From Tannockella kyphosi (GTDB lineage Bacteria; Bacillota_I; Bacilli_A; Erysipelotrichales; Coprobacillaceae): DNA of 32,000 nucleotides. Below the pieces are notes generated by a model. That model did no database searches, was not told where the DNA came from, and worked only from the letters and a program-made list of their open reading frames with translations. Positions 1-26,462 of this stretch are shown piece after piece. The DNA is taken from positions 990,001-1,022,000 of the forward strand of contig NZ_CP088239.1 in NCBI RefSeq assembly GCF_021054785.1, read 5' to 3'. The position numbers and the translations under genes were made by a program. How positions within the stretch are numbered: position 1 is the first letter of the stretch; each line of letters starts with the position of its first letter.

Positions 1-2
1 GT

Positions 3-330: not shown

Positions 331-355
331 TTTGGGGTTTCGATAAAACCCCAAG
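331..355. terminator. Hairpin TTTGGGGTTT-cgata-AAACCCCAAG between the transposase fragment and the convergent regulator gene; possible bidirectional terminator or ISL3 terminal structure
   Basis: 10-11 bp stem with a GGGG/CCCC core and a 5-nt loop, read directly. The flanking T-runs are only moderate on either strand. Confidence 0.3.
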
Positions 356-445
356 TTATCTTATAGCCAAATAAGTACTATACCCCAGAACTATTTATAG
401 TGCCAAACGATATTTCTACCATTTTACAATTACTAGAGTTTTTAA

Positions 446-2302: not shown

Positions 2303-2333
2303 TTCAATTCACACCTTTCTATATTGAACTATT

Positions 2334-3819
<1,486 letters not shown>

Positions 3820-4311
3820 TTGTTTTAATTACATTTTAGGGTATTAAAAATGTGAATATTATGTCAATATCTATTAGAAATGGTTAGTTAAGAAAATCAA
3901 AGAACTGATTTTTCATTGTATTGACAACAAAAAGAAACAACAGTTTAAATCATACTATTTCCTACAAAGATACATCTAGCATGAAAATGGAAATTATTTG
4001 AATTCAATTCATTTATCACTAATAATCAACCTCTACAAAGATAGTAACATAGAAATAATCATTTTGATAGAGAGCAATTATTATTTTCCTTCTACCATTA
4101 TGGGTGTAAAAGTAGAGCATATAAATATTTTGATATTAATCCGAACTCATTATTGATATCCCTCATTTTGCTACCTTGTCTTGCTACAAACCGAGTATCT
4201 ATTAACCATATATTTAATCATATATTCAAAAATATCACCTCCGCATATAAATGTCAACATTAATATGTACTTTGGGGGGCGGACAAAAAGTTGGAGTAAA
4301 AAGGCGAATTT

Positions 4312-5235
4312 ATGTATAGTGAAGAAAAGAAAAAAATTGCAGTAGAAACATATATTAAAAACGGTACAAGAGCAGCTCCAACAATCCGTGAATTAGGTTA
4401 TCCTAGTAGAAGAATAATCAGAATATGGTATAAAATATACACCGAAAATAATTCAATTTTTCCTGATAAACAAAGAAAACCAAGATACACAAAAGAACAA
4501 AGAAAAGAAGCAGTTGAACACTATTTAAATACTGGGAGATGCATTTCTTATACCACAAGGGTCTTAGGATATCCATCAAGAACCATCTTATCAAGATGGT
4601 TAAGAGAAGATGTTCCCGACTTTAAAAAAGCTTGCTTAACAGGAAAATCCAAAGTATCCTATACAAAACAAAAGAAGAAAGAAATACTTCAAGATGTAGT
4701 AATAGGTGAAAAAACGATAATATCCCTAGCAAAAGATCACAATGTAACTCCTATGGGTATATATAATTGGAAAAATGAAGTGTTATCAAAGGAAAGCTTA
4801 GAGATGATACAAGATAATAAGAAAAAGAAATCAAATATAGATATAATAACATTACAAGATGAACTATCCACTTTACAAAAAGAAGTTGCAAAACTACAAT
4901 TAGAAAAAGATATTTTAGAAACTGCTGTAAAAGTATTAAAAAAAGTAGAGGGCATTGATTACACGATCATTTCTAATATGGGAAAAACAATCATTATCAA
5001 TACCCTAAAAGATACTTATAAAATAAAAGAATTACTAGTACGACTACATATATCAAGCAGTAGCTATTTTCACTGTGTTAATCGACTAAAAAAGAAGATA
5101 AGTATAAAGAAATTCGTACTATCATGCATGATATGTTTTCACAATCCTATCAAGCATACAGTTATCGTAGAATTCATGGTGAATTATCAAACAAGAAAAT
5201 TAGTATATCTGAAAAGGTTGTACGTAAAATTATGA
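4312..5235 (+). CDS. IS3-family transposase OrfA (two HTH repeats plus leucine-zipper-like segment)
   Basis: Duplicated HTH-like segments (RELGYPSRRIIRIWY / RVLGYPSRTILSRWL). A heptad Leu region LQDELSTLQKEVAKLQLEKDILE follows. The last ~47 codons after the slippery site are out-of-frame orfB sequence. Confidence 0.7.
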   Translation: MYSEEKKKIAVETYIKNGTRAAPTIRELGYPSRRIIRIWYKIYTENNSIFPDKQRKPRYTKEQRKEAVEHYLNTGRCISYTTRVLGYPSRTILSRWLREDVPDFKKACLTGKSKVSYTKQKKKEILQDVVIGEKTIISLAKDHNVTPMGIYNWKNEVLSKESLEMIQDNKKKKSNIDIITLQDELSTLQKEVAKLQLEKDILETAVKVLKKVEGIDYTIISNMGKTIIINTLKDTYKIKELLVRLHISSSSYFHCVNRLKKKISIKKFVLSCMICFHNPIKHTVIVEFMVNYQTRKLVYLKRLYVKL

Positions 5236-5839
5236 AAGAGGAAGTCTAACTGTTTATAATAAGAAGAAAAAGAAATACTCTTCTTACTTAGGTGAAATAT
5301 CTCCAGCCGTAGAAAACTTGGTAAAAAGAAACTTTCATTGTAATGAACCAAATAAATTACTATTGACAGATATTACTGAATTTTCAATCCCAGCAGGAAA
5401 AGTATATTTGTCACCACTTGTAGATTGTTATGATGGTCTTATAACCTCGTGGTCTATTAGTCCATCACCAAATGCTCAGTTAGTAAATAGTATGCTAGAA
5501 ACAGCTTTAGATTCATTTAGTAACGATAATAGCGTTGTTATACATTCAGACCGCAGATCACATTACCGTTGGCCTCAATGGATTGAAATGATGGATAAGA
5601 ACAACTTAATTAGATCCATGTCTAAAAAAGGATGTTCACCCGATAATTCAGCTTGTGAAGGCTTTTTTGGACGATTAAAAAATGAAATGTTTTATAACAA
5701 GGATTGGACTAATATCAGTATTGATAAATTTATAGAAGAAGTTGATATCTATATAAAATGGTATAATAAAAAAAGAATAAAAAAGTCATTAGGTTGGTTA
5801 AGTCCAATAGACTACAGACGTGAAAAAGGTGTATTATAA
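5082..5839 (+). pseudogene. IS3-family transposase OrfB (DDE integrase core), disrupted by a frameshift near 5240-5249
   Basis: The OrfB frame hits TAA at 5247. Restoring one G (gaa gGt cta) would give ...MKEEGLTVYNKKKKKYSSYLGEISPAVENLVKRNF..., continuous with the 5318-5839 ORF. DDE residues sit in LLTDITEF, VIHSDRRSHY and SPDNSACEGFF. Confidence 0.7.
5088..5094 (+). promoter_or_regulatory. Candidate programmed -1 ribosomal frameshift heptamer A_AAA_AAG
   Basis: In the orfA frame the codons are ctA AAA AAG. Slipping -1 reads ...KK-EDKYKEIRTIMHDMFSQSYQAYSYRRIHGELSNKKISISEKVVRKIMKEE, a typical IS3 OrfB N-terminus. The -1 frame is open from 5082. Confidence 0.55.
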
Positions 5840-5894
5840 ACTCCAATAAAACGTCCGCACCCACTTTAGTACATCTTTATGTTAGCATTTATAT

Positions 5895-6188
5895 TGCTAC
5901 TTTCTCGCTTGTGAGACCTCCCAGGGTAAGGCTATACATCTTTCCCTCCATATATCTTCTATATTTACATTAGATAAGTACTTCATAGTCTGTTAGATTT
6001 TGTGTTGTTAAGCACACTTGTCTCTTATCTCCTGCCTGATATAGTTCGTGTTCCTAAGACCAGAGTTTTGTCTAATTCTTCCTTCAGATTCCACCTCACG
6101 ATAGACACCCTTGACTTCGACTAGTGGTTGGCGACTATTCCCCCACGGTGGACTTTCACCACTTAGATGTATACCATGCCTGACACAC
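5895..6188 (-). mobile_element. Group II intron 5' fragment (domain I), no reverse-transcriptase ORF
   Basis: Minus strand starts GTGTGTCAGGCATGG (GUGYG consensus). It contains GGTGAAAGTCCACC, GGGTGTCTATCGTGAGGTGGAATCTGAAGGAAG, AACAACACAAAATC and CTTACCCTGGGAGGTCT. I recognise these from memory as conserved domain-I motifs of Firmicute group II introns. No RT/maturase ORF or domain V was found nearby. Confidence 0.55.
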
Positions 6189-11778: not shown

Positions 11779-12246
11779 CTAAAATTTAACAGCTAATCGA
11801 ATATACTTTATATTTTTATAATCTACTACCATTTTTTTCTTAATATTCTTTACAAGATATTCAAAAGTTATCATCGTATCCTCAATAGAAATAATAGTAC
11901 CTTCTACCTCATTATTTCCTGATGTTGGTTCAATAAATTGCGCATAGACATAATGTCCAATTGAATCTTGTACCTGTTCCCAATTTTTTAATTGTTTTTC
12001 AGCTCCAGGTGATGATACCTCTAAATAATACTCATCTTTAATAGGATCTTGTTCATCCATTGCTAAACTAATTGCCTCACTAACAGTTACACATGTATCC
12101 ATATCCAATGCACCATTGTTTTTTTCAATATAAATACGTAAATACATTTCATTACCTTCTTTTACATATTCAATATCATCTAAATAAACATCATTTGTTT
12201 CTAAAATAGGTTTAATTATTGTAGTAATTTGATCAAGTAATTCCAT
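11779..12246 (-). CDS. rimP: Ribosome maturation factor RimP
   Basis: 155 aa, RimP-like (...YLRIYIEK...LEVSSPG...). AGAGGTGA RBS. First gene of the nusA-infB operon. Confidence 0.9.
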   Translation of the reverse strand: MELLDQITTIIKPILETNDVYLDDIEYVKEGNEMYLRIYIEKNNGALDMDTCVTVSEAISLAMDEQDPIKDEYYLEVSSPGAEKQLKNWEQVQDSIGHYVYAQFIEPTSGNNEVEGTIISIEDTMITFEYLVKNIKKKMVVDYKNIKYIRLAVKF

Positions 12247-12347: not shown

Positions 12348-12854
12348 TTAATCAAACAATTTATAATATTCAATAGAAACTACGGCATCATCAACAAGTA
12401 TAAATCTCAATTCCATTGTTTCAGATTCGTAACTTAATAAACTACTACTCTCAGATGACGGTTCACCGTATGCACTAATTATATCTTCACTTACAGAACC
12501 GATAACAATACCTTCTTGTGTACTAACTAAATCACTTGTAAGAGTAATTAGATAAATTATGGATTCATCATTTTCTTCATAGAAAGTTACAACAAAATTA
12601 TCATATGTATAAATAATATCCATTCCATCATTCGCACAACTAGCTGCTTCAAAACAATCTGCTTCTTCTTCAAGTAAATCTACTGTTTCTTCTACAGTAG
12701 CATCAATAAACAAAGAAACGCCTTCCGTTTCAAAAACAAATCCCTCTGATTGACCTGCAGTATCATCTCCAGAACTACCAATTTCTTGTTCACTACTACA
12801 TCCTGTTAAAATCAATGTACATAAAATGATGCTAGCTAAATAAATTTTTTTCAT
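12348..12854 (-). CDS. Lipoprotein of unknown function
   Basis: Signal peptide plus lipobox (MKKIYLASIILCTLILTGC|SS). Acidic mature domain ending in a GIVIGS..EDIISAYGEP... beta-rich module. GGAGG RBS. Confidence 0.75.
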   Translation of the reverse strand: MKKIYLASIILCTLILTGCSSEQEIGSSGDDTAGQSEGFVFETEGVSLFIDATVEETVDLLEEEADCFEAASCANDGMDIIYTYDNFVVTFYEENDESIIYLITLTSDLVSTQEGIVIGSVSEDIISAYGEPSSESSSLLSYESETMELRFILVDDAVVSIEYYKLFD

Positions 12855-12865
12855 ATTTTCCTCCT

Positions 12866-13909
12866 CTATTCAACACCGTACAACTCTTTTTGTATTTCTA
12901 TGTCTTCATAATATCTTTCTAATTTTATTTCCCATAAACTAGACAGAACTTCTTCGTCGCTTCTATCTTCTAACTCAAATTGAGTAGATAATATTTCGCC
13001 AAAGTAACTTGTTAATTTAGTCGCTCCATATAAATTTAAATGGGAACCGCCATCATATGTGTCGGTGTTATAGTCCAATCCAATTTCATTTGTATAATCC
13101 AAAAAATTAATATATGTTATATCATTATTCAATGCATAGTTTGTTATTTGTTCATCCCATTCATCATACCAATAAGGGTATAAAGAAGGTGCTTTTATTA
13201 GTATTAATTCAATATCATTTTCATCACAAAGATTAGTAATCTTATCTAAATACTCTAGAACATTCTCACTAATATCATATGTTTCTAAAACGGATCCATT
13301 AGGAACACTAGTGTAAGGTTGTGTATCTACTCTTAAATAGTATCCATTATACGAAACTAAATCACTAGAAAACATATATTCAAAATCCTCAAAAGTTAAC
13401 TCACTCCATCTTGAATGATACCTCAGGATTGGGAAAACATAATCTAATAACGACTCACTTTCTAACATAGAAGTAGTAATTGAATTAATCTTAGAAATAG
13501 ACCAATTCATACCATCCAACGTCATTCGATTATACTCTTCTTTTTGTGGCTCATCATATCGTATGGTTGAAACGTTAAATACGACAACATCAGGAACTTC
13601 ATAATTTAATGTATCTTCTAAAATATAATATGATTGCCATATCAATTGTTGTGCACTTCCTCTAACATAAGAATTTATACCATATTCCTCATACAAAACA
13701 GCAGGTATGAAATTACTATATACTTCACAATCTCCTATAAAAATAACATCATGATCTTTTTCATCATAGCCTTCCTGATTATAATAATATTCTTCTATAA
13801 AGGCCCCTTCGATAAGACTTGTCATATATTTAGGAATTAGTAATAATTGTAAAAGATATAAAATCAATAACAGTATAATAATAAAGAACACTAATCTTAT
13901 TTTTCTCAT
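12866..13909 (-). CDS. Membrane-anchored SGNH/GDSL-like (DltD/AlgX-like) protein; the block-I motif reads GDC instead of GDS
   Basis: N-terminal TM helix (LVFFIIILLLILYLLQLLLI). Block-I-like VIFIGDCEVYSNF and block-V-like DGGSHLNLYGA. Fold assignment is from motifs only. Confidence 0.6.
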   Translation of the reverse strand: MRKIRLVFFIIILLLILYLLQLLLIPKYMTSLIEGAFIEEYYYNQEGYDEKDHDVIFIGDCEVYSNFIPAVLYEEYGINSYVRGSAQQLIWQSYYILEDTLNYEVPDVVVFNVSTIRYDEPQKEEYNRMTLDGMNWSISKINSITTSMLESESLLDYVFPILRYHSRWSELTFEDFEYMFSSDLVSYNGYYLRVDTQPYTSVPNGSVLETYDISENVLEYLDKITNLCDENDIELILIKAPSLYPYWYDEWDEQITNYALNNDITYINFLDYTNEIGLDYNTDTYDGGSHLNLYGATKLTSYFGEILSTQFELEDRSDEEVLSSLWEIKLERYYEDIEIQKELYGVE

Positions 13910-13939
13910 CTTTTATCCCCCTATAAAAGAATTTTAATA

Positions 13940-15199
13940 TTAATTAATCGTAGGATAATCTGATGCTGTAAAATTATGACAATAGTTATGAGAATCTGAA
14001 TATTCCAACAATGTCTCTGTATCCCACAGGAAAATAATAGTTCCATCAGAACGATAAGTTGAATCAAAATGTACCCATCCATTACCAACATCAACCAAAT
14101 TCCAATAATGACTATAATATGTTGTTGTTTCAGTAGGTGTTCTTTCTATATCAAGATTAGGAATACCAGCTTGCGTTAATAAAATTTTAGCTGTTGATGC
14201 ATATGTGAAACAATCACCACTTTGATAAACCAAACCATCATAAGCTTCTTTTATCCAATCCGTTTTATCCGAACTACCTGTGTACTTAATTGAATTACGA
14301 CACCAATAATAGATAGCTGAAGCTTTTTCTGTTAGTGACATAGAATCGTCTATCAATTCAGATAAAAGTTCATCAGCAAGGTTTTGTATTACTTCATAAT
14401 CACTTTCTTCAATTGAAGATGCTATTTCCTCCTCTTCAACAATCACATTGATTGTTTGAGTAGACGAATTTCCTAATACATCAGTTGCAGTAACCAAAAC
14501 CTCATATGTTCCTACGCTGTTAAGATTAACTTTTGAATTATCAATATCAAGTTCGTAGTCACTATCATCTGTAATAGTGATTTGTGATAAATATGAAATA
14601 GATCCCCCCACATAAACACTAATTTTCTCAGGTGCATCAATAATAGGGGCAGTCGTATCCGCAGTGATTGTGATAAAACTGGTTACTATCGTTTCATTCC
14701 CTGACTCATCGATTAATGATATATTAATTTCCTGTTTTTCATAACTTGAATAGTCAATTTCATTTATAAAAGAGTATGTAACGGTAGCCACATCATCAAG
14801 GTCATCGAATAATTCTTCTATTGTAACACTATCTAAAAAGCTTATGACAATATCTACACTACTTGCACTCGGTGCAATAGTATCCTCAACTACCAAAGTA
14901 CATATATGGGTAAAAAAACCTTTTTTTATCATTATCTCAAATTCACCTACATTAGATGCTTCATATGTTTCAATTTCATCTACAAAAGATATTTCTCCAA
15001 ATCCTCTTTTTTCAAAAAAAGAGGCAGTTACTTCGTCTCCTAATTCTACTGTTCTAGTAATACAAACAGTATCATATCCCAAATAATAAAATGCGGTACA
15101 AAAACATCCTATACTGATGACAATAAATAATAAAATATTTTTTTTAAGTTTAGACTTTTCAATAAAATTATCTAGTAAAAACTGTTTGATGTTCACCAT
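13940..15199 (-). CDS. Membrane-anchored protein with Ig-like (DUF5011-like) repeats and a C-terminal transglutaminase-like Cys-protease core
   Basis: TM helix ILLFIVISIGCFCTAFYYL. Ig-like segment APIIDAP...VGTYEVLVTATDVLGNSSTQTINVIV. C-H-D core in QSGDCFTYA, HYWNLV and WVHFDST. I place the start at the ATG at 15199 (GGGAGA RBS), not the listed 15217. Confidence 0.8.
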   Translation of the reverse strand: MVNIKQFLLDNFIEKSKLKKNILLFIVISIGCFCTAFYYLGYDTVCITRTVELGDEVTASFFEKRGFGEISFVDEIETYEASNVGEFEIMIKKGFFTHICTLVVEDTIAPSASSVDIVISFLDSVTIEELFDDLDDVATVTYSFINEIDYSSYEKQEINISLIDESGNETIVTSFITITADTTAPIIDAPEKISVYVGGSISYLSQITITDDSDYELDIDNSKVNLNSVGTYEVLVTATDVLGNSSTQTINVIVEEEEIASSIEESDYEVIQNLADELLSELIDDSMSLTEKASAIYYWCRNSIKYTGSSDKTDWIKEAYDGLVYQSGDCFTYASTAKILLTQAGIPNLDIERTPTETTTYYSHYWNLVDVGNGWVHFDSTYRSDGTIIFLWDTETLLEYSDSHNYCHNFTASDYPTIN

Positions 15200-15220
15200 A
15201 ATTATCTCCCTTTTCAAAAA

Positions 15221-15249
15221 ATAGTATCATAGGCCAAGTTGAAAGTCAA
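15221..15249 (-). promoter_or_regulatory. Candidate sigma-A promoter TTGACT - 17 - TACTAT for the transglutaminase/SGNH/lipoprotein operon
   Basis: Minus strand reads tatTTGACTttcaacttggcctatgaTACTATtttttgaaaaGGGAGAtaattATG. Confidence 0.5.
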
Positions 15250-15367
15250 TAAAACCGAACATGAACAAAAATCAAAAATTATTATCAAAATTATCCCCAC
15301 ATAAAAAAATGAAAACTATTTACAATGAAAAAATTCTTAATTTATATTCTCAATATTTTTTATTTTA

Positions 15368-16786
15368 TTAAATTAATATACTGAAACTAGGTATGTATGT
15401 CATTAAAGCCCAAACAACAACCGTCATGAGTAAGACAACTATCACCGTTAGTTTAATCCCATGTTTAAACATATACTGTGGGTTCAACCCATATCCTACT
15501 GGTATTGCACGAATCGATGTAGGCATACAATAAGATAGATTAACCCCTACACTTGCTGCCAACATATATGGAATCGGATTTAAGTTTAGTGCTAACGCTA
15601 AACTTAAAACAATTGGTATTGCTACTGCAGCAGTTGCAGTGTTACTTGTTAAATCCGATAAAACAATCGTTAATGCAATAATTACAAACACTAACATCAT
15701 TTCATTTTGAAACTGTACAGTAGAAAGTAAATTACCTAAAGCTTGTGCTGCTCCACTACCATTAATTAATGTCCCTACTGCTAAACCTCCTGCAAATACA
15801 TAAATTAATTCCCATACTATTTTCTTTTGAACATTCTTCCAAACCATTAGTTTCTCTCCATTTTCTTTTTTGAAAAGAAAACTAATTAATGCACATATAA
15901 TAAAAATATAAGCAGGTTCTAAACCTGGTAATAAATGTTCATAGAATGATCTTGTAAATGACAAGATTGTTGCAATAACAAATAATAATAAGCACATTGC
16001 TTCATTTTTACTCATCTTCCCAAGTTCTTTGTTCTTTTCAACAAAATATGCTTTTGATCCTTCTAATTGAATGTTCTTAGGTTTAATAACCAATAAGAAA
16101 GCCAAATTAGATACAATTAAAACAATCATCACAGGGAAAAATTTAATTACCCAATCAATATACATAAACTCACTTCCTGTATATTGCTCAATATAATCAA
16201 CCACTACTAAATTCATTGCTCCTCCTAATGGACTAGCCAATCCCCCTAATCCAGCACCCCAAGCAATAGTTAGTAATAAAATAGATCCCACTTCACTTTT
16301 ATTAATATTTTCTATACCAATATAGCGAAGCATTGATACAGCAATAGGTACAACTGTTGCACACACGATTGCATTTGGTAATACAGCAGACATAGCCACC
16401 GATAATACAAACCAAAATATAATTTGTGAAGTCAAAGAAGAGCCTATTAACCCTAAGAAGACATAAGCAATTCTTTTGTCTAATTCTACCTCTTCCCATG
16501 AAACTGTTAATATAGATGCTCCTAAAAGTAATAAGATTGTTTCTGAAGCATAGTTTGCTATTACACTAGACATAGATGTCATTTCAATAATCGCATTAAT
16601 TGCTATTGGTAAAAAGCCTGTTACTGCATAGTCCATGCATGAACTAACCCACCAATACGCCATCCAAGCAACCGTACCAATAGCTGCTCTCATTTCAAAC
16701 GTAGTAAAAATACTTTCTGGTAAGAATGCAATGCATGATAGAAATAGGATTGGCCCTATTAGGATATGTATAGTATTCTTTTTCAT
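15368..16786 (-). CDS. DASS/SLC13-type (ArsB/NhaD superfamily) anion/carboxylate permease
   Basis: About 471 aa and polytopic. The two-repeat architecture and motifs (ASPLGGAMNLVV, SDLTSNTATAAVAIPI) fit SLC13-family permeases. The ATG at 16786 (MKKNTIH...) lies 2 nt after the carrier-protein stop; the listed 16804 start has no RBS. Confidence 0.75.
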   Translation of the reverse strand: MKKNTIHILIGPILFLSCIAFLPESIFTTFEMRAAIGTVAWMAYWWVSSCMDYAVTGFLPIAINAIIEMTSMSSVIANYASETILLLLGASILTVSWEEVELDKRIAYVFLGLIGSSLTSQIIFWFVLSVAMSAVLPNAIVCATVVPIAVSMLRYIGIENINKSEVGSILLLTIAWGAGLGGLASPLGGAMNLVVVDYIEQYTGSEFMYIDWVIKFFPVMIVLIVSNLAFLLVIKPKNIQLEGSKAYFVEKNKELGKMSKNEAMCLLLFVIATILSFTRSFYEHLLPGLEPAYIFIICALISFLFKKENGEKLMVWKNVQKKIVWELIYVFAGGLAVGTLINGSGAAQALGNLLSTVQFQNEMMLVFVIIALTIVLSDLTSNTATAAVAIPIVLSLALALNLNPIPYMLAASVGVNLSYCMPTSIRAIPVGYGLNPQYMFKHGIKLTVIVVLLMTVVVWALMTYIPSFSILI

Positions 16787-16787
16787 A

Positions 16788-17015
16788 TTACCCTTGTAAT
16801 TCACTAATTAATTCAACGATTGCATCAACAGAATTTAAATTTTCTGGCACTAAATCCATTACATCTATTTCTACATCAAATGCAAAACTTAGTTCACTTA
16901 CTAAACTAATAATAGATAATGAATCTAAAATACGTGAATCAATTAATTTTGTCTCTTTTTCATAATCTACTCCTGGATTTACTGTGTTTAAAATCTCAAT
17001 AATTTGTTCTTTCAT
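16788..17015 (-). CDS. Acyl/D-alanyl carrier protein (DltC-like)
   Basis: 75 aa with the phosphopantetheine attachment motif ILDSLSIISLVSEL (compare DltC LLDSFGTVELL). GAGGGAAAG RBS. Confidence 0.8.
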   Translation of the reverse strand: MKEQIIEILNTVNPGVDYEKETKLIDSRILDSLSIISLVSELSFAFDVEIDVMDLVPENLNSVDAIVELISELQG

Positions 17016-17026
17016 TTTCTTTCCCT

Positions 17027-17218
17027 CTACCCTATTTTGGTCTTTCTATCAATTTTTCCATTATATGTTCTAGGAACACTATCTATTTTTATAATGCTTC
17101 TAGGTCTTTTGAAGTCTTCTAAATTATTTAGGAAATGTTCTTCTAAAATCTTTGTATCAAAGTCAACTTCTGACACTATATACAAAACAGGAACAGCTCC
17201 TATTAATGCATCTTCCCT
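17027..17218 (-). pseudogene. C-terminal 63 codons of the DltA-like AMP-ligase, severed by the IS110 insertion
   Basis: The minus-strand frame reads REDALIGAVPVLYIVSEVDFDTKILEEHFLNNLEDFKRPRSIIKIDSVPRTYNGKIDRKTKIG*. This is the adenylate-forming enzyme A8-A10 region, including NGKIDRK. Confidence 0.85.
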
Positions 17219-17273
17219 TGTATGATATTAATGATCCTTGTTTCACTAATTACATACGCTCCTTTCTTATATT

Positions 17274-17282
17274 TGTTATAAT
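17274..17282 (+). promoter_or_regulatory. Extended -10 element TGtTATAAT inside the IS110 left arm
   Basis: Reads atatttGTTATAATgg. It would start transcription near 17289, upstream of the structured non-coding region and the transposase. Confidence 0.4.
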
Positions 17283-17288
17283 GGATAT

Positions 17289-17445
17289 AGAACCTATGTT
17301 TTGATTTTTACTATGGTTTTCGTCCATTTAAGGGAGACTAATACCATGGCTCTATATTTTTAATTTATAGTTGGATAAGCGTTAATGCTTTTATGTCACG
17401 CAAGGATATAGATATAGACTGCCATGGATAGACAAGGTTCTAGAA
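17289..17445 (+). ncRNA. Candidate IS110 bridge (seek) RNA
   Basis: A 14-bp interrupted stem pairs CCATGGC-TCTATAT (17344-17357) with ATATAGA-ct-GCCATGG (17412-17427). The enclosed loop carries ATAGTTGG (17367-17374), identical to the IS right terminus (18719-18726). AAGGGAGAC (17330-17338) is the reverse complement of the right junction (18725-18733). RNA ends are approximate. Confidence 0.4.
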
Positions 17446-17460
17446 AGGTGGTCTATTTTT

Positions 17461-18624
17461 ATGACTTATTACGTAGGCATTGATATTGCCAAAACAACGC
17501 ATTATGCTTGTGTTATCACAACTCATGGTGAAGTGATTCACCAACCTTTTCCTTTTGATAATTCAAAAGAAGGGTTTCATTTATTACTTTCCAAAATATC
17601 TTCTATTGATAAAGAAGATATTCTAATTGGTTTTGAATCTACTGCTCATTACCATCAAAACTTACATTCTTATCTTTCTACTTTTGGATACCACTGCGAA
17701 CTTATTAATCCCATCATATCCAAACAGTTTCGTGGTTTATCAGTTCGTAATGCTAAGACGGATAAAATTGATGCTATGTCCATTGCTCAACTTCTTTCTT
17801 ATCAGTACAACAATTCACAAGGTCAAGACTTTCTTGTTTCTGACTTACGTGTATATTGTGATGAAAGAGTTCGTCTTACTAAACAAAAGACAAAACTATA
17901 CATCCAACTAACTGCTGAGCTAGATCGTGTGTTCCCAGAGCTTAAATCCTTCTTTAAAGGCAATTTAAAGACGAATGCAGCCCATAATTTACTAAAACGA
18001 TACGCTACAGCTAAGGAAATAAAAGAAGTTCGAAATGAGGCTTTGACAAAGTTAATTTCTAAAAATAGTAAAGGCTTCAACCTCGAACGTATCAAAGACC
18101 TTAAATCGTTAAGTAAAAATAGCGTTGGCTTTCATTCAAACGCAATCTCTTTTAGAATTAAAAATATCATACTCCAAATCGAACTTCTAGAATCGCAGTT
18201 AGAAGATGTAGAAGCAAACATCATTGAAATGATGAAAGAAATAGACAGTGCTATATTGAATATCCCAGGTATGGGCTATATTCAAGGTGCTTACATCTTA
18301 TCTGCTATCATTAGTATAGACCGATTTGATAGTCCTTGTAAAGTACTAGCTTATGCAGGATTAGATCCAATCATAAGACAGTCTGGTAATTTTAATGCAA
18401 AGAGAACACGTATGTCTAAAAGAGGAAATGCTACACTACGTTATGCGCTTATATGGGCAGCTCATAATGTGGCAAAAAATTCAACAACTATGAATACTTA
18501 CTATTTAAAGAAACGCAGTGAAGGAAAATCTCATTACAATGCCTTAGGGCATTGTTCAAAGAAACTAGTAAACTATATTTACTTTGTCTTAAATAATCCT
18601 GATGAAAAATTCATCTTAGAATAA
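17461..18624 (+). CDS. IS110-family transposase (DEDD RuvC-like domain plus C-terminal Tnp domain)
   Basis: YVGIDIAKTTH (D), GFESTAHYH (E) and AKTDKIDA (D). C-terminal IPGMG..., GLDP...QSG...MSKRGNATLRYAL is typical of IS110/IS1111 recombinases. AAAGGTGG RBS. Confidence 0.92.
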   Translation: MTYYVGIDIAKTTHYACVITTHGEVIHQPFPFDNSKEGFHLLLSKISSIDKEDILIGFESTAHYHQNLHSYLSTFGYHCELINPIISKQFRGLSVRNAKTDKIDAMSIAQLLSYQYNNSQGQDFLVSDLRVYCDERVRLTKQKTKLYIQLTAELDRVFPELKSFFKGNLKTNAAHNLLKRYATAKEIKEVRNEALTKLISKNSKGFNLERIKDLKSLSKNSVGFHSNAISFRIKNIILQIELLESQLEDVEANIIEMMKEIDSAILNIPGMGYIQGAYILSAIISIDRFDSPCKVLAYAGLDPIIRQSGNFNAKRTRMSKRGNATLRYALIWAAHNVAKNSTTMNTYYLKKRSEGKSHYNALGHCSKKLVNYIYFVLNNPDEKFILE

Positions 18625-18729
18625 TTTTTTAAAAATAGCTTATTTTACCTTTTTTAGTGCGCTCTTTTTTAAGACTTAAAAGAAATTTAATTTTTTATCA
18701 TTTTTCTCTTGAAAAATCATAGTTGGTCT

Positions 18730-19986
18730 CCCTTTACAAATACAATCATTAACACCTTCTATTTGTAATGCTAATTCCTCTACTTCCAAAGGAGAAACTT
18801 TATTTCCTCCAGTAATAATAACATCATCTGCTCTACCTAACATATAAATTCTTCCTTCTTCATCTTTATATCCTAAATCAGAAGATTGTAAATATCCATT
18901 AATAATGGTTTTATTCGTTAATTCTGGTTCATTATAATAACACTTCATTTTCATTCCACCTGTATATGAAATATATCCTGGGTTTTCTAATGAGGCATCT
19001 TCCATTTCACCGCCATTTTCATCAACAATTCTAAATTGTGAATGAACTCCTGGGTAGCCTATACAGCTTTGTTTATTATCTTTCGAATTAAAGTTCAATA
19101 TACAAGCACATCCTACTTCTGTAGAACCATATATATTATATAAACGGACATTTGGTACTATTTGTAATAAATGTTCTTTATCTACTTCTGGTATAGGTGC
19201 TGATCCAAATTGAATATAATCTAATTGATCTGCATAATTCGCAATTCGATCCCTTGTCAATTTAAAAATAATACTCATTGCAGCTGGAGCCATTGCTAAT
19301 GCTGTTACTTTATATTTTTCAATCATATTAAATACTATTTTTACAAAAAATACACCATCTAATACTATAACAGTACTCCCATTAATCATATTCGCAAAAT
19401 ATCTTCTTAAACTAAAGGAATGATTCATTGGCATCGGTATGATTTCTACATTATCCTTTTTCATCTCAACACCATACATTACATTTTCTCCTACCGCTAC
19501 TTCTGCAAGATATTCTAAAACAATACCTTTCGACTTTCCAGTAGTTCCAGTAGTAAACAAAATCATTGAATCACCAACCATATTAGAAATATCAAAAGTA
19601 TTAACTACTCCTGTATAATTATATGCATCTTCGATGCAGTAACAATCATACCCATCTATTTTCATATCACCAAAGAACTTTGTTGCTTTTGTTTCCTTTA
19701 AAATCTCTTGAACTCTACCAACATTCACACTTTTTTCTAATGGAACAACTATTCCATTTATTAATTGAATAGCGTGTACTAATACTAAATAAGGAACAGA
19801 TTGACTATTCTTTACAACAATGCACTCATTGTCTTTTACACCTATTTCTAACAAATAACTAGCAGCAATATTTATCTTATCCCAATATTCTTGATAAGTT
19901 AGTTCTATCTTAACATCAATGATTGCTAGTTTATTGGGTGTACTTATTGCATGATTTCTAATACATTCTACTATTGATTTATTCAT
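18730..19986 (-). pseudogene. N-terminal 419 codons of the DltA-like AMP-dependent ligase (the listed ORF runs on into IS sequence to 18676)
   Basis: Adenylation motifs FTTGTTGKSKG (A3), NIYGSTE (A5) and GYLQSSDLGY...GRADDVII (A7/A8). GAGGAGG RBS. The last 17 residues of the listed ORF (RPTMIFQEKNDKKLNFF) are read from the IS110 right end. Confidence 0.85.
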
Positions 19987-20030
19987 CTGATTCCTCCTCT
20001 AATTCCCCAATATATCAATAGGAGCATTTT

Positions 20031-21641
20031 TTAAAATGCTCCATAAATAAACGCGCTTGCGTCATAACCAGCACCATACATCCCAAATATAATTACAATC
20101 ATTATTGCAACATAATAAATAATCCATCGAACAATTATATTTTGTTTTCCAATAGACTTTCTAATTTCAACCCCTTTTTCGTGTAAGATATCTACACCAA
20201 TCATACACACAACTCCTACGATTATAACAATAAAGTGTTTTTCAGTTAGGAGCGTACCATACAAATCGTGATTATAAACAATACTATTATTAAATATTTG
20301 CTTAAGTAATATAAAGAACCCTGTTGTAGTGCCAGTAATAGTAATCATTCTTCCTATACCAAATAAAAATATTGTTCTAAACATACAAAAAATATGATAA
20401 CAAAAGTTATTGCTTATAGAAATATTTTTAAATAATTTATCTGCTATTGGTTTAGTTTCTTTCGAAACAGTCATGATAGCACACCAATATAATCCCCATA
20501 AAATATAATCTATACCTGTTCCGTGCCAAATACCAGTAAATAACCATACTGTAATCAACGGGACAAATGCATTAATGAAAGATGCCCTCCATAGCTTTCC
20601 TGACTTTTTTAATTTCATCGTATATTTCATAAACTTTGAATTTACTGCTATAGGAAAGTAAATATAGTCTTTTGTCCAAGTTCCTAAAGTCATATGCCAT
20701 CTTGCCCAAAATTCAGAAGCACTCTTAGCAAAAAACGGTTGTTCAAAGTTTTTATCTAACTGTATACCGATTATTTCTGATATCCCTCGAACTATATCCA
20801 TACATCCACTAAAATCAGCATACAACTGAATAACACAAGAAATAATAGCTATTACTATTTCTATTGATGAATACTCTAATGGATTGGCAAATACAACAGT
20901 AGTATATGTTGCAATATAATTAGCAACAATTAATTTCTTACCATATCCCCATAGCATTAACTGTAACCCATGACAAGTACGATCAAAACTAAGACTAGGA
21001 AGGTTTTTCATTTGTTCTATTAATTTAGAATACTTACTTATCGGCCCTTGTACTATATGTGGGAAATAAATCATAGCAGCAAATAGATTGATAAAATCTT
21101 TTTCTGCTTCCGTTTTTTTCCAATATACATCCAACAAATATCCTATTGAAGATAAAGTGTAATAAGATATTCCTAAGGGAACTAGAATACCGAACCCAAA
21201 AGTCATGTTTGATATTTTTTCTAATATTTCAAAACTAAGTAATTTTGTAATTTTTACATAACCCCATATTGAAACAATCGTAAATATGGCAAGTTTCAAA
21301 TAAATAGTTGCTTTGTTTTTATATTGACTAAATAAGACTCTTTGTTCTTTAGGTGTTAGTCCTTGTTTTTCTTGATCAAACTCTTTATACACTTTTTCTA
21401 TTTTTCTAGATGAAAGATATACTGTTAATGCTGTTCCTACAACAATAATAGATGCTCCAACCCCATTCCAAAAATAGAATATCATACTTGCAATTAATAC
21501 TAGATATTTTCTAAGATTTGCATTTGGTAAAACAGCATACACTATAATAAAAAACATCAAACAAATCCCAAATAATCCTGATGTATAACTCAATTCTGCA
21601 TTCCACATCAATTGAGCAAAATTCAATATCCTATTTATCAT
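20031..21641 (-). CDS. MBOAT-family membrane O-acyltransferase (DltB/AlgI-like), 536 aa
   Basis: Polytopic, with MBOAT His motifs FWARWHMTLGTWTKDYIYFP and FTGIWHGTG. GGGGGAGG RBS. Confidence 0.85.
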   Translation of the reverse strand: MINRILNFAQLMWNAELSYTSGLFGICLMFFIIVYAVLPNANLRKYLVLIASMIFYFWNGVGASIIVVGTALTVYLSSRKIEKVYKEFDQEKQGLTPKEQRVLFSQYKNKATIYLKLAIFTIVSIWGYVKITKLLSFEILEKISNMTFGFGILVPLGISYYTLSSIGYLLDVYWKKTEAEKDFINLFAAMIYFPHIVQGPISKYSKLIEQMKNLPSLSFDRTCHGLQLMLWGYGKKLIVANYIATYTTVVFANPLEYSSIEIVIAIISCVIQLYADFSGCMDIVRGISEIIGIQLDKNFEQPFFAKSASEFWARWHMTLGTWTKDYIYFPIAVNSKFMKYTMKLKKSGKLWRASFINAFVPLITVWLFTGIWHGTGIDYILWGLYWCAIMTVSKETKPIADKLFKNISISNNFCYHIFCMFRTIFLFGIGRMITITGTTTGFFILLKQIFNNSIVYNHDLYGTLLTEKHFIVIIVGVVCMIGVDILHEKGVEIRKSIGKQNIIVRWIIYYVAIMIVIIFGMYGAGYDASAFIYGAF

Positions 21642-22083
21642 TATTCCTCCCCCTTAATATCCACTAGAACACATATTTCAACATGTACTAAATAAAAACT
21701 ATAATATATTATTTCTCCTTAACCATAGAGTATCTGCAAAGATGAAATGATTTCTATTGTCGTAATTATATCAATAACAAATTATAAAATAATATCATAA
21801 CCTCAACAACACATTTACTTCACTGGGATAAAAAACAAGACTTTAACAATTAATATTTATTAGATTTAAACAATCTCCATATTACTCTTATCTTGTGCCA
21901 TTTTTCATCCCACTATAGCATATATTATTTTAAAATTTAAATTATTTACATAAAACATTACTCTAGCTTGAAACAGTGAATATAATAACTTACGATAAAA
22001 ATTTATTTATAAAAAAGAGACTTTTATAATACTTGAGTTTTTATCATTCAGTCATCTTATATTTTTATCATTAAAATATTTAA

Positions 22084-22136
22084 AATAATGGATTCTAGTA
22101 AAGATATATATATCTTTTATTTAAGAATCCATTATT
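22084..22136 (-). terminator. Two-tier hairpin after polC (13-bp outer stem AATAATGGATTCT/AGAATCCATTATT enclosing an AAAGATATA/TATATCTTT hairpin)
   Basis: Read directly. It starts 3 nt after the polC stop. The downstream tract is only moderately T-rich, so terminator function is tentative. Confidence 0.45.
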
Positions 22137-22139
22137 ATT

Positions 22140-25100
22140 TTAAAACAAACTCAGCTGATTAGTCTCTTGCATATCTTTAAAAACACCCATTGATGTTAGT
22201 AACTTAATATGAGAGTTATTTAACTTAGTACGTTTTGTAACATCTTCAATTGATAAGAAAGCTCCATTCTTTCTTGCTTCAATTACAGTATTTGCAACAT
22301 TCGTACCTAGTGAATCCAATGCTGAAAAAGGTGGTAATATACCAAACTTATCATCAGGATCTAACGTAAAAGAATCAGCAGCAGATTTATCCAAACTAAT
22401 TGGGTTTAAATGATACCCTCTTTCAAACATTTCTAATACAATTTCTAATACATCCCATAAAGATTCATCTTTATTTGTAGCATCTCTATTTTCTCTAGCA
22501 ACTACTATTTGTTCACGTCTTTCTAACACAGCTTCTTTCCCACTACACATAGCCTCTAAATCAAAGGCATCACATCTAGTAGAAAAATAAACAGAATAAT
22601 ATTCTCTAGGATAATAAAGTTTCCACCAAGCAACACGAACAGCTGATAATACATAGGCAGCAGCATGTGCTTTCGGGAACATGTATTTAATTTTTTTACA
22701 TGAATCAATGTACCATTGAGGAACATTATGTTCCTTCATTAATTCTTCATATTTTTTAACAGGGAAGACTTCGGAAGACCTACCCTTTCTTACCACTTCC
22801 ATGATATCAAACGCAGCTTTATTAGGAAGTCCTTTTTCAATTAAATAAACCATAATATCATCACGACATCCAATTACTTCAGATAAAGTACATGTTTTGT
22901 TTTTAATCAACATTTCTGCATTACCTAAATAAACATCTGTACCATGAGAAAGCCCAGAAATAATAACTAAATCATTAAAATCTTTGGGTTGTGTTTGATC
23001 TAACATTTGACGAACAAAAGATGTACCAAATTCAGGTAAACCTAAAGCTCCATTTTTACAGTTAATAAATGATAAATCAACACCCATCTCTTTGGTTGAA
23101 GTAAATAAACTCATTACTTTTTTATCATTAGTAGGTATCGTTTTAGGATCAACTCCTGTTAAATCTTGTAAAGCACGTATCACTGTAGGATCAACGTGTC
23201 CTAGTATATCTAATTTTAATACATTATCATGAATAGCATGGAAATCAAAATGTGTTGTTTTCCATGGAGAATTTAAATCATCTGCAGGAAATTGAACTGG
23301 TGTGAAATCATAAACATCCATATCATTAGGTATTACAATAATACCTCCAGGATGTTGTCCAGTCGTTCTTTTAACTCCTTGACATCCTTTTGCAATACGT
23401 TCCAGTTCAGCTCCTCTAATAGAATCTTCTCTTCCAGTTAACTCACTATATCCCTTCGCATAACCATAAGCAGTTTTTTCAGCAACCGTTGAAATAGTAC
23501 CAGCTCTAAATACTTTATCTTCACCAAATAAAACTTTTGTATAATCATGTGCTTTTGATTGGTAAGCACCTGAGAAGTTTAAGTCAATATCTGGCACTTT
23601 GTCTGCTTCAAATCCTAAAAAGGTTTCAAAAGGAATATTATGACCTTCTCCTTTAAGTGGTTTCCCACAAACAGGACAATCCTTATTTTCTAAGTCATAC
23701 CCGTTGGCTACAACCCCTTCTTCCATAAATTCATTATAACCACAACTCAAACAAACATAATGTGGCGGTAATGGATTAACTTCTGTTATTCCAGACATCG
23801 TTGCTACAAATGAAGAACCAACAGAACCCCTTGAACCAACTAGATAACCATCATCATTCGATTTTTTTACTAACTTATGAGAAATATAGTATATTACTCC
23901 AAAACCATGTTTAATAATATTCCCTAATTCTCTTTCAAGACGTTTTTCTACAATATCAGGTAATTCTTTTCCATATAATGCATGCGCATTATCATAACAA
24001 ATAGATCGTAGATTTTCATCAGCACCTTCAATAAATGGTGTAAATAATTTATCATGAACCGGTTTTAATTCTTCAATCATGTCGGCTATCAAATTCGTAT
24101 TTGTAACAACATACTCAAAAGCTTCTTCTTTATCTAAATAATGAAAAGCATCTAACATTTCGGTAGTTGTACGTAAATATTGATTGGGTGTAAAAGCTTT
24201 AGGATTCTTACGATCACATAATGGATGTGCTTTTCTACTAATTCCAATTGTTGGATTGGAAATAAAAACATCACGATATATTTTATCTTTTGGATTTAAG
24301 AAATGGACATCTCCACTTGCTACAATAATTTTATTTTGATTTTTTGCTTCTTTTATGATTCTTAAAATAGATAGCTTTATTGCTTCCATACTATCTACTT
24401 TCCCGCGTTCCACTAAATGATAGTAATCTTCTAATGGTTGAATTTCAATATAATCATAATATGCGATAGCTTCTTTTAAAGACTTATCATTACCATAAAG
24501 AGCAATATCAAAAACATCACCTTGATAACAACTACTTCCATATAATAAACCTTCTCGATAAAAATCCAAACGTTCTTTAATAATTAACGCTTCTCTATGG
24601 TAATAAACAGTATTCGCTTCTGTTACTATCTTAAATAGATTTTTTAATCCAATTTTATTTTTTGCTAAAATAGTCATATGATTTGGGAAAACATATTTAT
24701 AAGCTTCCTCACTACTAATAGCTGTAACATCTAATAAGTTAAACTTGTTTTCATCAATCAATTGATAAATCATCATTGTTAGTACATCACCTAATACTTG
24801 CGCATCATAATCAGCTCTATGTGCTACTTCATCATCATAAGGCACCTTATATTGACGACATACATTTCCTAAACGATATGATTTCATTGGTTTTAAAATC
24901 ATTCGTGCTAATGGTAATGTATCAATAACAGGATTTGTTATTTCAGGTTGTCCCATTCGACTAAGATTTTCATTTAAAAAACCAATATCAAATTTCGCAT
25001 TATGTGCAACTAAAATACAGTCATCAAAGAATTCAAGAATTTTAGGCATAAACTCTTCAATCGTAGGAGCATTTTTTACCATTTCATTAGTAATACTAGT

Positions 25101-26462
25101 AAGATTACTAATTTTAGTACTTATTTGTTTTTGTGGATTAATAAAAGATTGTAAACGATCTACTACTTCTCCATGACAAATCTTCACTGCCCCAAATTCA
25201 GTAACACCATCATGAAATACAGATAACCCTGTTGTTTCTAAGTCAAAAGAAACATAAGTAGCATCTAATAATGAACAATCTTTCGAATTATAAACAATAT
25301 TCATTTCTGGATTCACAAAATTCAGTTCCACACCATAAATCATCTTTACATCATTTTTAGCACATGCTTGTTGGGCATCTGGGAAAGATTGACAATTCCC
25401 ATGATCACAAATAGCAATTGCTTTATGACCCCACTTCGCAACAGTTTTTACATAATCACCAATTTCATTAATTCCATCCATTGCAGACATTTTAGAATGT
25501 GTATGTAATTCAACGCGTTTTTCTTTTTCATTATCATTACGTTCTTTAGGTGAAGGCATACTTTCTATTTTACGTGCCATAATTGTGTTTTCCCCAGCAA
25601 AAGTATCAAATCGAATTTCACCACGAACTTCAACCCATCCTTTTGCTTTTTCCAACACTTTCATTTCTTCTACGCTACATGATCTTTTGTTTTCAAAACG
25701 TTTTACAATAATCGAATCTGTATAGTCTGTAATCCATAATGTTTGAATATGGCTACCAGCTTTTGTTTTTATTAAATCTGTTTTAAATATATATCCTCTT
25801 ACTAATACATTTTTTTCCATCGTACTAGAAGTAATCTCTGATAATAACATTTCAACAGATTTTCCTGCTTGATAATAATTATTTCCTGAAGAACCAGAAT
25901 ATGTTTTTGGTGTTTCATTCTTAGGGATTAAATCAGAAATATCGACTGTCGCTAATTTAACAGACTCCATTTCTTGGGTAGATTGAATATAATCATCATT
26001 TTTATCATCAATTTCAAAACTAACTTTTTTATTAATACCAATAATTTGAAACTGAGATTCAATATATTGTTTTGTTTTACAAATCTCTTGATAGTGACTT
26101 TTATTTACCGCTTTTATTATTATTTTATCTTTTATTTCTATTGGACAAAAAGTTAAAGAAGGTAAAGTAGGATAATCTGTTTCTAGTTTTTTTAATACAT
26201 AAGTTAAATAACTATTTATTTCTTCTTCATAATACTCATTTCCATCATTTACAAATTCAAAAGTACAAGGAAATTCAAATTTATAAGCATTTGATAATAA
26301 TAAAGCAAAATCACAATATGGTAATAAATTAGTAGAATAAATAGTAAAATGAAAGAAGTCTTTTGATCCTACTATTACCCGTTGAAGTGAAGCATCTTTT
26401 AATGCTGTCACCTGTTGTTCAATTTCTAGTTGTTTTAATAAAATATCAATCTTATTATTCAT
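22140..26462 (-). CDS. polC: DNA polymerase III alpha subunit, PolC type
   Basis: 1440 aa with PHP domain (ELHTHSKMS), inserted DEDDh exonuclease (FDLETTGL...HNAKFDIGFL...HRADYDA) and a Zn-finger segment (CLSCGY...CPVCG). AGGAGG RBS. Confidence 0.98.
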   Translation of the reverse strand: MNNKIDILLKQLEIEQQVTALKDASLQRVIVGSKDFFHFTIYSTNLLPYCDFALLLSNAYKFEFPCTFEFVNDGNEYYEEEINSYLTYVLKKLETDYPTLPSLTFCPIEIKDKIIIKAVNKSHYQEICKTKQYIESQFQIIGINKKVSFEIDDKNDDYIQSTQEMESVKLATVDISDLIPKNETPKTYSGSSGNNYYQAGKSVEMLLSEITSSTMEKNVLVRGYIFKTDLIKTKAGSHIQTLWITDYTDSIIVKRFENKRSCSVEEMKVLEKAKGWVEVRGEIRFDTFAGENTIMARKIESMPSPKERNDNEKEKRVELHTHSKMSAMDGINEIGDYVKTVAKWGHKAIAICDHGNCQSFPDAQQACAKNDVKMIYGVELNFVNPEMNIVYNSKDCSLLDATYVSFDLETTGLSVFHDGVTEFGAVKICHGEVVDRLQSFINPQKQISTKISNLTSITNEMVKNAPTIEEFMPKILEFFDDCILVAHNAKFDIGFLNENLSRMGQPEITNPVIDTLPLARMILKPMKSYRLGNVCRQYKVPYDDEVAHRADYDAQVLGDVLTMMIYQLIDENKFNLLDVTAISSEEAYKYVFPNHMTILAKNKIGLKNLFKIVTEANTVYYHREALIIKERLDFYREGLLYGSSCYQGDVFDIALYGNDKSLKEAIAYYDYIEIQPLEDYYHLVERGKVDSMEAIKLSILRIIKEAKNQNKIIVASGDVHFLNPKDKIYRDVFISNPTIGISRKAHPLCDRKNPKAFTPNQYLRTTTEMLDAFHYLDKEEAFEYVVTNTNLIADMIEELKPVHDKLFTPFIEGADENLRSICYDNAHALYGKELPDIVEKRLERELGNIIKHGFGVIYYISHKLVKKSNDDGYLVGSRGSVGSSFVATMSGITEVNPLPPHYVCLSCGYNEFMEEGVVANGYDLENKDCPVCGKPLKGEGHNIPFETFLGFEADKVPDIDLNFSGAYQSKAHDYTKVLFGEDKVFRAGTISTVAEKTAYGYAKGYSELTGREDSIRGAELERIAKGCQGVKRTTGQHPGGIIVIPNDMDVYDFTPVQFPADDLNSPWKTTHFDFHAIHDNVLKLDILGHVDPTVIRALQDLTGVDPKTIPTNDKKVMSLFTSTKEMGVDLSFINCKNGALGLPEFGTSFVRQMLDQTQPKDFNDLVIISGLSHGTDVYLGNAEMLIKNKTCTLSEVIGCRDDIMVYLIEKGLPNKAAFDIMEVVRKGRSSEVFPVKKYEELMKEHNVPQWYIDSCKKIKYMFPKAHAAAYVLSAVRVAWWKLYYPREYYSVYFSTRCDAFDLEAMCSGKEAVLERREQIVVARENRDATNKDESLWDVLEIVLEMFERGYHLNPISLDKSAADSFTLDPDDKFGILPPFSALDSLGTNVANTVIEARKNGAFLSIEDVTKRTKLNNSHIKLLTSMGVFKDMQETNQLSLF

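Follow-up and report, generated by a model that had tools for sequence, protein, structure and literature searches.

A predicted Dlt/PatAB-like hybrid acylation locus with a linked DASS-type permease in Tannockella kyphosi

Which acyl group is handled by a gene cluster that follows the logic of teichoic acid D-alanylation (Dlt) and also encodes a solute permease? This question is raised by a minus-strand locus in a 32-kb stretch of the Tannockella kyphosi genome (the window, meaning the whole stretch of DNA analysed; all coordinates are positions within it). A first-pass annotation had placed four genes here, for an MBOAT (membrane-bound O-acyltransferase), an adenylating ligase, a small carrier protein, and a DASS/SLC13-type permease, and the four open reading frames (ORFs) and the motifs quoted for them are present as placed on the minus strand. 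Its proposal of a Dlt-like module is supported by the present analysis, but the FxYxxF tail of the MBOAT, the seven-gene extent of the locus, a Cys nucleophile, and the chimeric origin of the locus had escaped notice. The locus probably encodes a carrier-dependent MBOAT-SGNH pathway by which a carboxylic acid other than an alpha-amino acid is ester-linked to an envelope polymer outside the cytoplasm. Judged from sequence, the system would be a hybrid of the Dlt and PatAB relays, equipped with a non-amino-acid ligase and a dedicated importer. The features of the locus, in the order of transcription, are:

21642-22139, minus strand: leader, 498 nt of intergenic DNA from the polC stop to the MBOAT start, presumed promoter region
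20031-21641, minus strand: MBOAT acyltransferase, 536 aa (PF03062, 34.5 bits; motifs WARWH and GIWHG)
18730-19986, minus strand: 5' part of the ligase gene, codons 1 to ~420 (AMP-binding, E 4.6e-47; motif TTGTTGKSKG)
17219-18727, plus strand: IS110-family element, 1509 bp, with its transposase at 17461-18624 and a CT on each side
17027-17218, minus strand: 3' part of the ligase gene, last 62 codons (motif A10, NGKIDRK)
16788-17015, minus strand: carrier protein, 75 aa (phosphopantetheine site LDSLS; PP-binding, 22.7 bits)
15368-16786, minus strand: DASS/SLC13-type permease, 472 aa (Na_sulph_symp, 136.8 bits; CitMHS, 139.9 bits)
13940-15217, minus strand: transglutaminase-like, membrane-anchored protein with Ig-like domains, 425 aa (Transglut_core, 49.4 bits)
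12866-13909, minus strand: 347-aa protein with a membrane anchor and an SGNH fold; it probably acts as the final transferase, like DltD or PatB, and has Cys at the nucleophile position
12348-12854, minus strand: lipoprotein, 168 aa (lipobox LTGC)

In the proposed pathway, the DASS permease would take up the free acid from outside, or recapture it after its release from the polymer. The acyl-CoA-synthetase-like ligase would adenylate the acid and load it as a thioester onto the phosphopantetheine arm of the 75-aa carrier, from which the MBOAT would move the acyl group through its His-containing tunnel to Tyr533 of its own FIYGAF tail at the outer membrane face. This tail would stand in for the separate DltX microprotein of D-alanylation. 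The SGNH protein would then accept the acyl group on its nucleophile (Cys61 in this strain) and pass it to the polymer. The order of transfer is modelled on the published Dlt and PatAB mechanisms; inward transport and an envelope acceptor are presumed.

The MBOAT, the carrier, and the ligase

The MBOAT has a DltB-like core. It scores 130.5 bits on the DltB model TIGR04091 (cut-off 375), with residues 112-428 alone covered, and the best solved-structure match of its AlphaFold2 (AF2) model (pLDDT 81.8) is DltB (6bug_C, TMt 0.69). The model further contains helices at residues 467-488 and 502-525 and a disordered tail (residues 530-536), and the protein ends in FIYGAF. Across an alignment of 26 MBOAT homologues, H316, H373, F531, and Y533 are invariant, and an FxYxxF C-terminus is present in 99 of the 120 best database matches. 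This motif is the acyl-shuttle hexapeptide of DltX, PatA, and other long bacterial MBOATs, and in the long MBOATs it rides on two extra transmembrane helices that are absent from DltB (PMC12148441). The extra length of the protein is thus explained by two additional helices and a fused FxYxxF acyl-shuttle tail. In the Dlt system (DltX-DltA-DltB-DltC-DltD), by contrast, the shuttle motif resides on the DltX microprotein, and DltB, at approximately 400 aa, lacks one. The 498-nt leader contains no minus-strand ORF of at least 20 aa, and thus no DltX-like microprotein upstream of the MBOAT. Based on the DltB-like core, the fused tail, and the lack of an upstream DltX ORF, the MBOAT joins a Dlt-like donor side with a PatA-like acceptor side.

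The acceptor side is shared with the acetyl-CoA-dependent PatA/PatB, AlgI/AlgJ/AlgX, and cellulose acetylation systems, all of which have a long MBOAT with two extra C-terminal helices, the FxYxxF motif, and a separate SGNH protein (PMC12148441). The PatAB and AlgIJX pathways, however, use an acyl-CoA donor and no carrier, and the 2025 mechanistic study of PatAB describes MBOAT/SGNH pathways other than Dlt as operating without a carrier protein (PMC12148441). The clade of the window MBOAT differs in this respect. When one genome per species was scanned with the MBOAT alignment and partner genes were sought in the 80 loci returned, a carrier gene was found within 10 kb, nearly always with an adenylating ligase, in 25/29 loci with an MBOAT close to that of the window (224 bits or more against it), versus 0/51 of the loci with more distant MBOATs. 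The distant MBOATs mostly end in FIYFQF and are often paired with an SGNH-like gene alone. Carrier-dependent long MBOATs apparently form a wider, undescribed clade in gut Firmicutes; among open-access papers, no description was found of a carrier-dependent MBOAT besides that of Dlt, of an MBOAT linked to an SLC13 protein, or of a succinyl teichoic-acid MBOAT.

The donor side recalls Dlt in that a ligase would load a small phosphopantetheinyl carrier, and the likeness continues in an MBOAT closest to DltB, a tyrosine acyl-shuttle motif, and a membrane-anchored, SGNH-fold candidate for the final transferase. The carrier itself is a generic PP-binding protein with the DSL serine. Its scores on the DltC models are 36.6 bits (NF003464, cut-off 68) and 20.5 bits (TIGR01688, cut-off 52.35), and weak NCBIfam matches to ornithine-lipid and cispentacin carriers were also obtained. 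It is 37-44% identical to the carriers of related modules, the upper value being that for the carrier of locus L166, a member of the racemase-type operons described below.

The ligase departs from Dlt. The best NCBIfam models for the window ligase are PRK06187 (fatty-acyl-CoA type) and a MenE-type model; the 25 best families shown contain none for DltA. Its intact homologues score 278-287 bits (L002, L004) and 237 bits (L006) on the fatty-acyl-CoA ligase subfamily and 180-214 bits on MenE models, all below the respective cut-offs, and those of L002 and L006 score 142-153 bits on DltA models with cut-offs of 476 (NF003417) and 559.85 (TIGR01734). The nearest annotated subfamilies include MenE and malonyl-CoA synthetase. 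In the substrate pocket, the A4 motif of the window ligase reads PMNHSFSLRR, with a His and no equivalent of the Asp235 that binds the alpha-amino group; the consensus of the family is P-[ML]-[NS]-H-[SA]-x-x-[LIM]-R, and the Arg five positions past the His is conserved. The DltA-like ligases of related loci instead have an F-D-x-S type of A4 motif with the amino-binding Asp (e.g., FDFDVSV). Nesting of the ligase within DltA, which would have spoken against the annotation, is contradicted by DltA scores far below cut-off and by the altered A4 motif. On the same two grounds, an alpha-amino acid is very unlikely to be the substrate, as read from the sequence. Two further routes to a substrate were tried and set aside: the pocket Arg was judged not diagnostic (see below), and the best sequence matches in the PDB (the NRPS adenylation domain LgrA, then FadD5 and MenE) indicated no substrate.

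Ligases of the MBOAT clade fall into two classes, the acyl-CoA-synthetase-like class of the window and an amino-acid-adenylating, DltA-like class that also scores below the DltA cut-offs. Many Clostridia (L008, L010-L013, L016, L022, and similar loci) contain a plain ligase-carrier-MBOAT-SGNH module with a long FxYxxF MBOAT. The ligases of these plain modules are DltA-like (270-317 bits against the cut-off of 476), and some lack an Asp235 equivalent (FYFSMSV); judging from this motif, their substrates may differ as well. A ligase-carrier pair used for a surface modification other than D-alanylation is known from AlmEFG of Vibrio cholerae, in which a DltA/DltC-like pair serves the addition of glycine to lipid A. 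Unlike the present system, it transfers an amino acid through AlmG, a lipid A acyltransferase of the cytoplasmic face, in place of an MBOAT-SGNH relay and has no linked importer.

The permease and the recurrence of the module

The carrier stop codon (TAA, 16790-16788) and the permease ATG (16786) are separated by a single base, in agreement with the earlier placement of the ATG 2 nt past the stop. The coding sequence is taken as 15368-16786 and not from the GTG at 16804 chosen by the ORF lister, as the ATG start fits the N-termini of homologues. The protein clearly belongs to the Na_sulph_symp family of Pfam (136.8 bits, cut-off 27) and shares with DASS/SLC13 transporters (VcINDY, NaDC1, NaCT) the fold family and the SNT motif of the second hairpin. 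Its closest solved relatives are mostly di- and tricarboxylate transporters (NaDC1, INDY, NaDC3, VcINDY, NaCT), and the sulfate carrier SLC13A1 is also among them. In contrast to these transporters, the permease is linked to an acylation module and not to catabolic genes.

The annotation had expected the permease to be conserved beside the module, and this is what was found. MBOAT homologues of 45-52% identity lie in loci that also contain a carrier, a ligase, a 518-547-aa protein, and a permease 59-60% identical to that of the window; over the related modules, permease identity spans 59-76%. Metagenome contigs searched with the permease returned 80 loci at 58-63% identity; together with those found earlier, their permeases fall into 22 clusters (90% identity). 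The linkage count was restricted to the 28 scan loci with at least 6.5 kb on both sides of the permease. The MBOAT, carrier, ligase, and SGNH-like genes are all present in 24 of these 28 loci, and 3 further loci lack a detectable carrier alone. This five-gene linkage, found in many Clostridia, occurs in at least 7 different gene orders. Because the genes stay together through so many arrangements, the pattern points to selection for linkage rather than inheritance of a single arrangement; the linkage is real, and the permease belongs to the acylation module.

Two neighbourhoods were recorded that are not conserved. At L004 (positions 1-4764), the module lies beside genes for CysN/C-type sulfate activation, an arylsulfotransferase, and a sulfonate-type ABC transporter. 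At L150, a gene with a Fumerase_C domain (4433-4969) is directly upstream of the module, preceded by a 310-aa ORF (3416-4348).

As to the acid itself, three indirect hints point to an acidic dicarboxylic acyl group: the substrates of the DASS family, the MenE and malonyl-CoA synthetase subfamilies near the ligase, and the aspartate-racemase-family enzyme and acidic-type amino-acid ligase that usually accompany the accessory genes of the locus elsewhere. The established substrates of DASS transporters favour such a group. We tentatively suggest a C4/C5 dicarboxylate such as succinate or malate, a possibility to be held loosely; if correct, the modification would place more negative charge on the polymer.

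A chimeric locus interrupted by IS110

Tannockella kyphosi, a member of the Erysipelotrichaceae, is confirmed as the source by a protein of this species that matches the MBOAT at 100% identity. The seven-gene locus (12348-22139) sits between polC (22140-26462) and rimP (11779-12246), in an otherwise standard block of uppS, cdsA, dxr, rseP, and polC followed by rimP, nusA, and further genes. The uppS-cdsA-dxr-rseP-polC-rimP-nusA block is conserved in Firmicutes, and the whole locus is an insertion between polC and rimP. No compositional signal accompanies it, with a GC content of ~30% throughout the window and no anomaly at the locus. Only weak promoter-like sites were detected in the leader, and the idea of a riboswitch was dropped after no Rfam family matched the leader at threshold. 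The earlier description of a four-gene operon holds for its four genes but probably not for its extent, as three same-strand genes follow (13940-15217, 12866-13909, 12348-12854), and these probably belong functionally with the first four.

The SGNH protein encoded by the second of these genes had been suggested to play the DltD role, and both its relatives and its fold agree. It shares homology with the first 320 residues of the 518-547-aa fifth gene product of permease-type modules (27-29% identity, E ~1e-27), for which the look-ups made gave no Pfam family. An N-terminal anchor helix precedes an SGNH fold (AF2, pLDDT 76) whose Foldseek matches include GDSL lipases, DltD (6pfx, 3bma; TMq 0.35-0.42), and PatB (7tlv); no Pfam DltD match was found for the 347-aa protein. 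Across 30 homologues, G59-D60-C61-E62 and D286/H290 are invariant, and Cys61 occupies the place of the usual nucleophilic Ser of SGNH enzymes. The SGNH partners of other modules have G-S-S or G-N-S there (Ser in most modules), and DltD has a Ser-His-Asp triad. A thioester intermediate at Cys61 is implied by this reading of the sequence. The family is large and well conserved, with 6810 proteins at E <= 1e-8; for the best 120 listed, identity to the window protein is ~58-67%. The window gene is on the same strand as the MBOAT gene and 6 kb downstream of it; in related loci the SGNH gene is adjacent to or within the module.

In the long Ser-type SGNH partners of other permease-type loci (L002:11338-12981, L004:6433-7989, L006:7371-9434), a domain that weakly resembles ILEI in Pfam searches (24-25 bits, cut-off 27) occurs once or twice at the C-terminus. 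The ILEI-like fold binds glycans, and the domain may thus be glycan-binding, a hint at a glycan acceptor.

The closest relatives of the window SGNH protein, at 60-64% identity, are the SGNH partners of a different class of operon. In Lachnospiraceae, this racemase-type operon encodes, in order, a transglutaminase-like protein, an asp_race-family racemase, an amino-acid ligase, a carrier, an MBOAT, a Cys-type SGNH protein, and a lipoprotein (e.g., L166:1495-8578 and, in Acetatifactor muris, L167:975-8730). Its racemase scores 182 bits on TIGR00035 and 185 bits on CuyB (cut-off 190), and its ligase has the motif LDACFK or LDACLR, with Asp235 and a Lys or Arg at position 239. By the specificity codes of adenylation domains, this combination fits acidic amino acids. 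From its sequences, the operon appears to specify a Dlt-type pathway that handles an acidic D-amino acid; no description of it was found in the literature.

All three back genes of the Tannockella locus have orthologues in this operon. The transglutaminase-like protein, with candidate catalytic Cys, His, and Asp residues on reading the sequence, is 41% identical to the first gene product of L166 and 35% identical to its L167 counterpart; the SGNH protein is 60% identical to that of L166; and the lipoprotein, without a significant Pfam match, is 47-49% identical to the product of the gene after SGNH in L166 and L168 (49% for L166) and 30% identical in L167. A transglutaminase-like gene also adjoins the MBOAT modules of L017 and L031, together with the lipoprotein gene. 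In contrast, the window MBOAT and ligase are only 30% and 22% identical to those of this operon, and acyl supply there consists of a racemase and an amino-acid ligase rather than a permease and a carboxylate ligase. Because the back genes are orthologous to the racemase-type operon and the MBOAT and ligase are distant from it, the locus reads as a seven-gene chimera with a permease-type front (MBOAT-ligase-carrier-permease) and a racemase-type back (transglutaminase-SGNH-lipoprotein). The front lacks the SGNH step alone, and the back retains it.

In this strain, the ligase gene is split by the insertion sequence (IS) element at 17219-18727. Its transposase contains DEDD_Tnp_IS110 and Transposase_20 domains and scores 209.7 bits on NF033542 (cut-off 140), which assigns it to the IS110 family. 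The reading frame of the 5' ligase part enters the element and meets a stop at 18676. Removal of the element and one CT restores an uninterrupted ligase ORF of 482 aa that aligns end to end with intact homologues; the 3' part is then in frame with the 5' part and aligns with the C-termini of those homologues. The break falls before motif A10 (NGKIDRK) and its catalytic lysine. A 5' fragment without A10 cannot adenylate in this enzyme family. The split ahead of this lysine supports the earlier expectation that the pathway is off in the Tannockella strain, as predicted from sequence. Because the transposase gene runs opposite to the operon strand, the carrier and permease genes downstream may be poorly expressed as well.

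At its left end, the element contains 242 nt of non-coding DNA ahead of the transposase ATG (17461), the region in which IS110 elements encode their guide (bridge) RNA; no Rfam match was obtained in it at the gathering threshold. At the locus with the closest MBOAT relative (L001:8001-10279, 59% identity), an N-terminal ligase fragment of ~44-47 codons comes before the gene of an IS3-type transposase. Within this small clade, the ligase has been disrupted by an IS twice independently, with a different transposase gene in each case. Elsewhere in the window, a second mobile region (4312-6105) contains an IS3-type element with HTH_Tnp_1 and rve ORFs (4312-5839, plus strand) and, on the opposite strand, a match to the D1-D4 RNA of a group II intron (5932-6105, 120 bits).

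Competing explanations and biological meaning

Several observations weigh against the favoured reading of an envelope-acylation pathway. Cooperation of the two halves is uncertain, because the Cys-type SGNH protein comes from another module class and is separated from the front by a gene and by a 150-nt gap with a promoter-like site, located between the permease and transglutaminase-like genes. The combination of transglutaminase-like, Cys-type SGNH, and lipoprotein genes is unique to the window among ~90 permease-type loci; the others have the long Ser-type SGNH protein, and neither a transglutaminase-like nor a lipoprotein gene was found in them. The permease scores 151.6 bits on TIGR00785, below the cut-off of 198.6, and the SNT of its first hairpin is replaced by an invariant PNA, a loss of one of the two substrate/sodium motifs; the protein is an atypical DASS member whose cargo may be other than a classical dicarboxylate. 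The conserved Arg of the ligase pocket is also present in module ligases without a linked permease (L007, L020). Around 10 permease-type modules, no flanking genes are conserved and two-component regulators alone recur (5/87 proteins); the neighbours vary among OmpR-type two-component systems, LysR, MerR, fumarase-like, and ribosomal genes and offer no clue to the acceptor. Finally, what is known of the module family comes from sequences and models.

The strongest rival holds that the two halves are unrelated remnants that never formed a working pathway here: the front would be a stranded permease-type cassette from which first the native SGNH gene and later the ligase disappeared, and the back a leftover racemase-type operon minus racemase, ligase, carrier, and MBOAT. 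The unique gene combination, the gap with its promoter-like site, and the IS damage to the ligases of both the window and L001 speak for this scenario. The halves are, however, exactly complementary, no terminator-like site was found between them, and the six other genes are intact full-length ORFs in which the residues checked are preserved (the FxYxxF tail, GDCE, and D..H). The insertion is clean and recent-looking, with a fully restorable frame, and both module classes share the FxYxxF tail that the SGNH protein has to recognise. We regard the remnant scenario as unlikely, though it deserves serious weight.

A second alternative, which appears rather improbable, retains a functional system but alters its ends: the acceptor would be a membrane glycolipid or a secreted small molecule instead of an envelope polymer, or the permease, instead of supplying the acyl group, would be an exporter of a product or an importer of sulfate or some other anion. 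The weak carrier matches to ornithine-lipid and cispentacin carriers, the PNA motif, the score under the DASS cut-off, and the sulfate-activation and arylsulfotransferase genes beside L004 fit this alternative. The sulfur-gene context is nevertheless confined to that one locus, and repeated shuffling of gene order has left the permease, ligase, and carrier genes linked. All characterised bacterial MBOAT-SGNH pairs modify extracytoplasmic polymers (PMC12148441), and the weakly ILEI-like domain of the long SGNH partners, with its presumed glycan-binding fold, also favours a polymer. That the locus is a rearranged housekeeping dlt operon attaching D-alanine to teichoic acids is hardly credible: the ligase, carrier, MBOAT, and SGNH protein do follow Dlt-like logic, with DltB as the best NCBIfam and structural match of the MBOAT and DltC as the best NCBIfam match of the carrier, but the DltA, DltB, and DltC equivalog models all score far below their cut-offs, the amino-binding Asp and a DltX gene in the leader are missing, and the module is tied to a DASS permease with no racemase or D-Ala supply gene.

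Under the favoured reading of an envelope-acylation pathway, the locus bears on a broader question. D-alanylation is so far the sole envelope acylation known to use a carrier protein. Together, the present module and its wider MBOAT clade instead suggest a family of carrier-dependent acylation pathways with differing acyl groups, common in the Firmicutes of human and animal guts. A further proposal, offered speculatively, is that gut Clostridia and Erysipelotrichia possess a so far overlooked set of carrier-dependent MBOAT-SGNH pathways by which envelope polymers receive ester-linked acidic acyl groups, namely an imported dicarboxylate in the permease type and D-aspartate or a similar acidic D-amino acid in the racemase type. 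Importer plus ligase and racemase plus ligase might be interchangeable supply cassettes, as the chimeric Tannockella locus suggests. Both kinds of acyl group would make the polymer more negative, contrary to the effect of D-alanylation. Should the bacteria draw an anionic acid from their surroundings for this purpose, they would be tuning their surface charge with a gut metabolite, with possible consequences for cationic-peptide resistance, phage adsorption, and host immune recognition.

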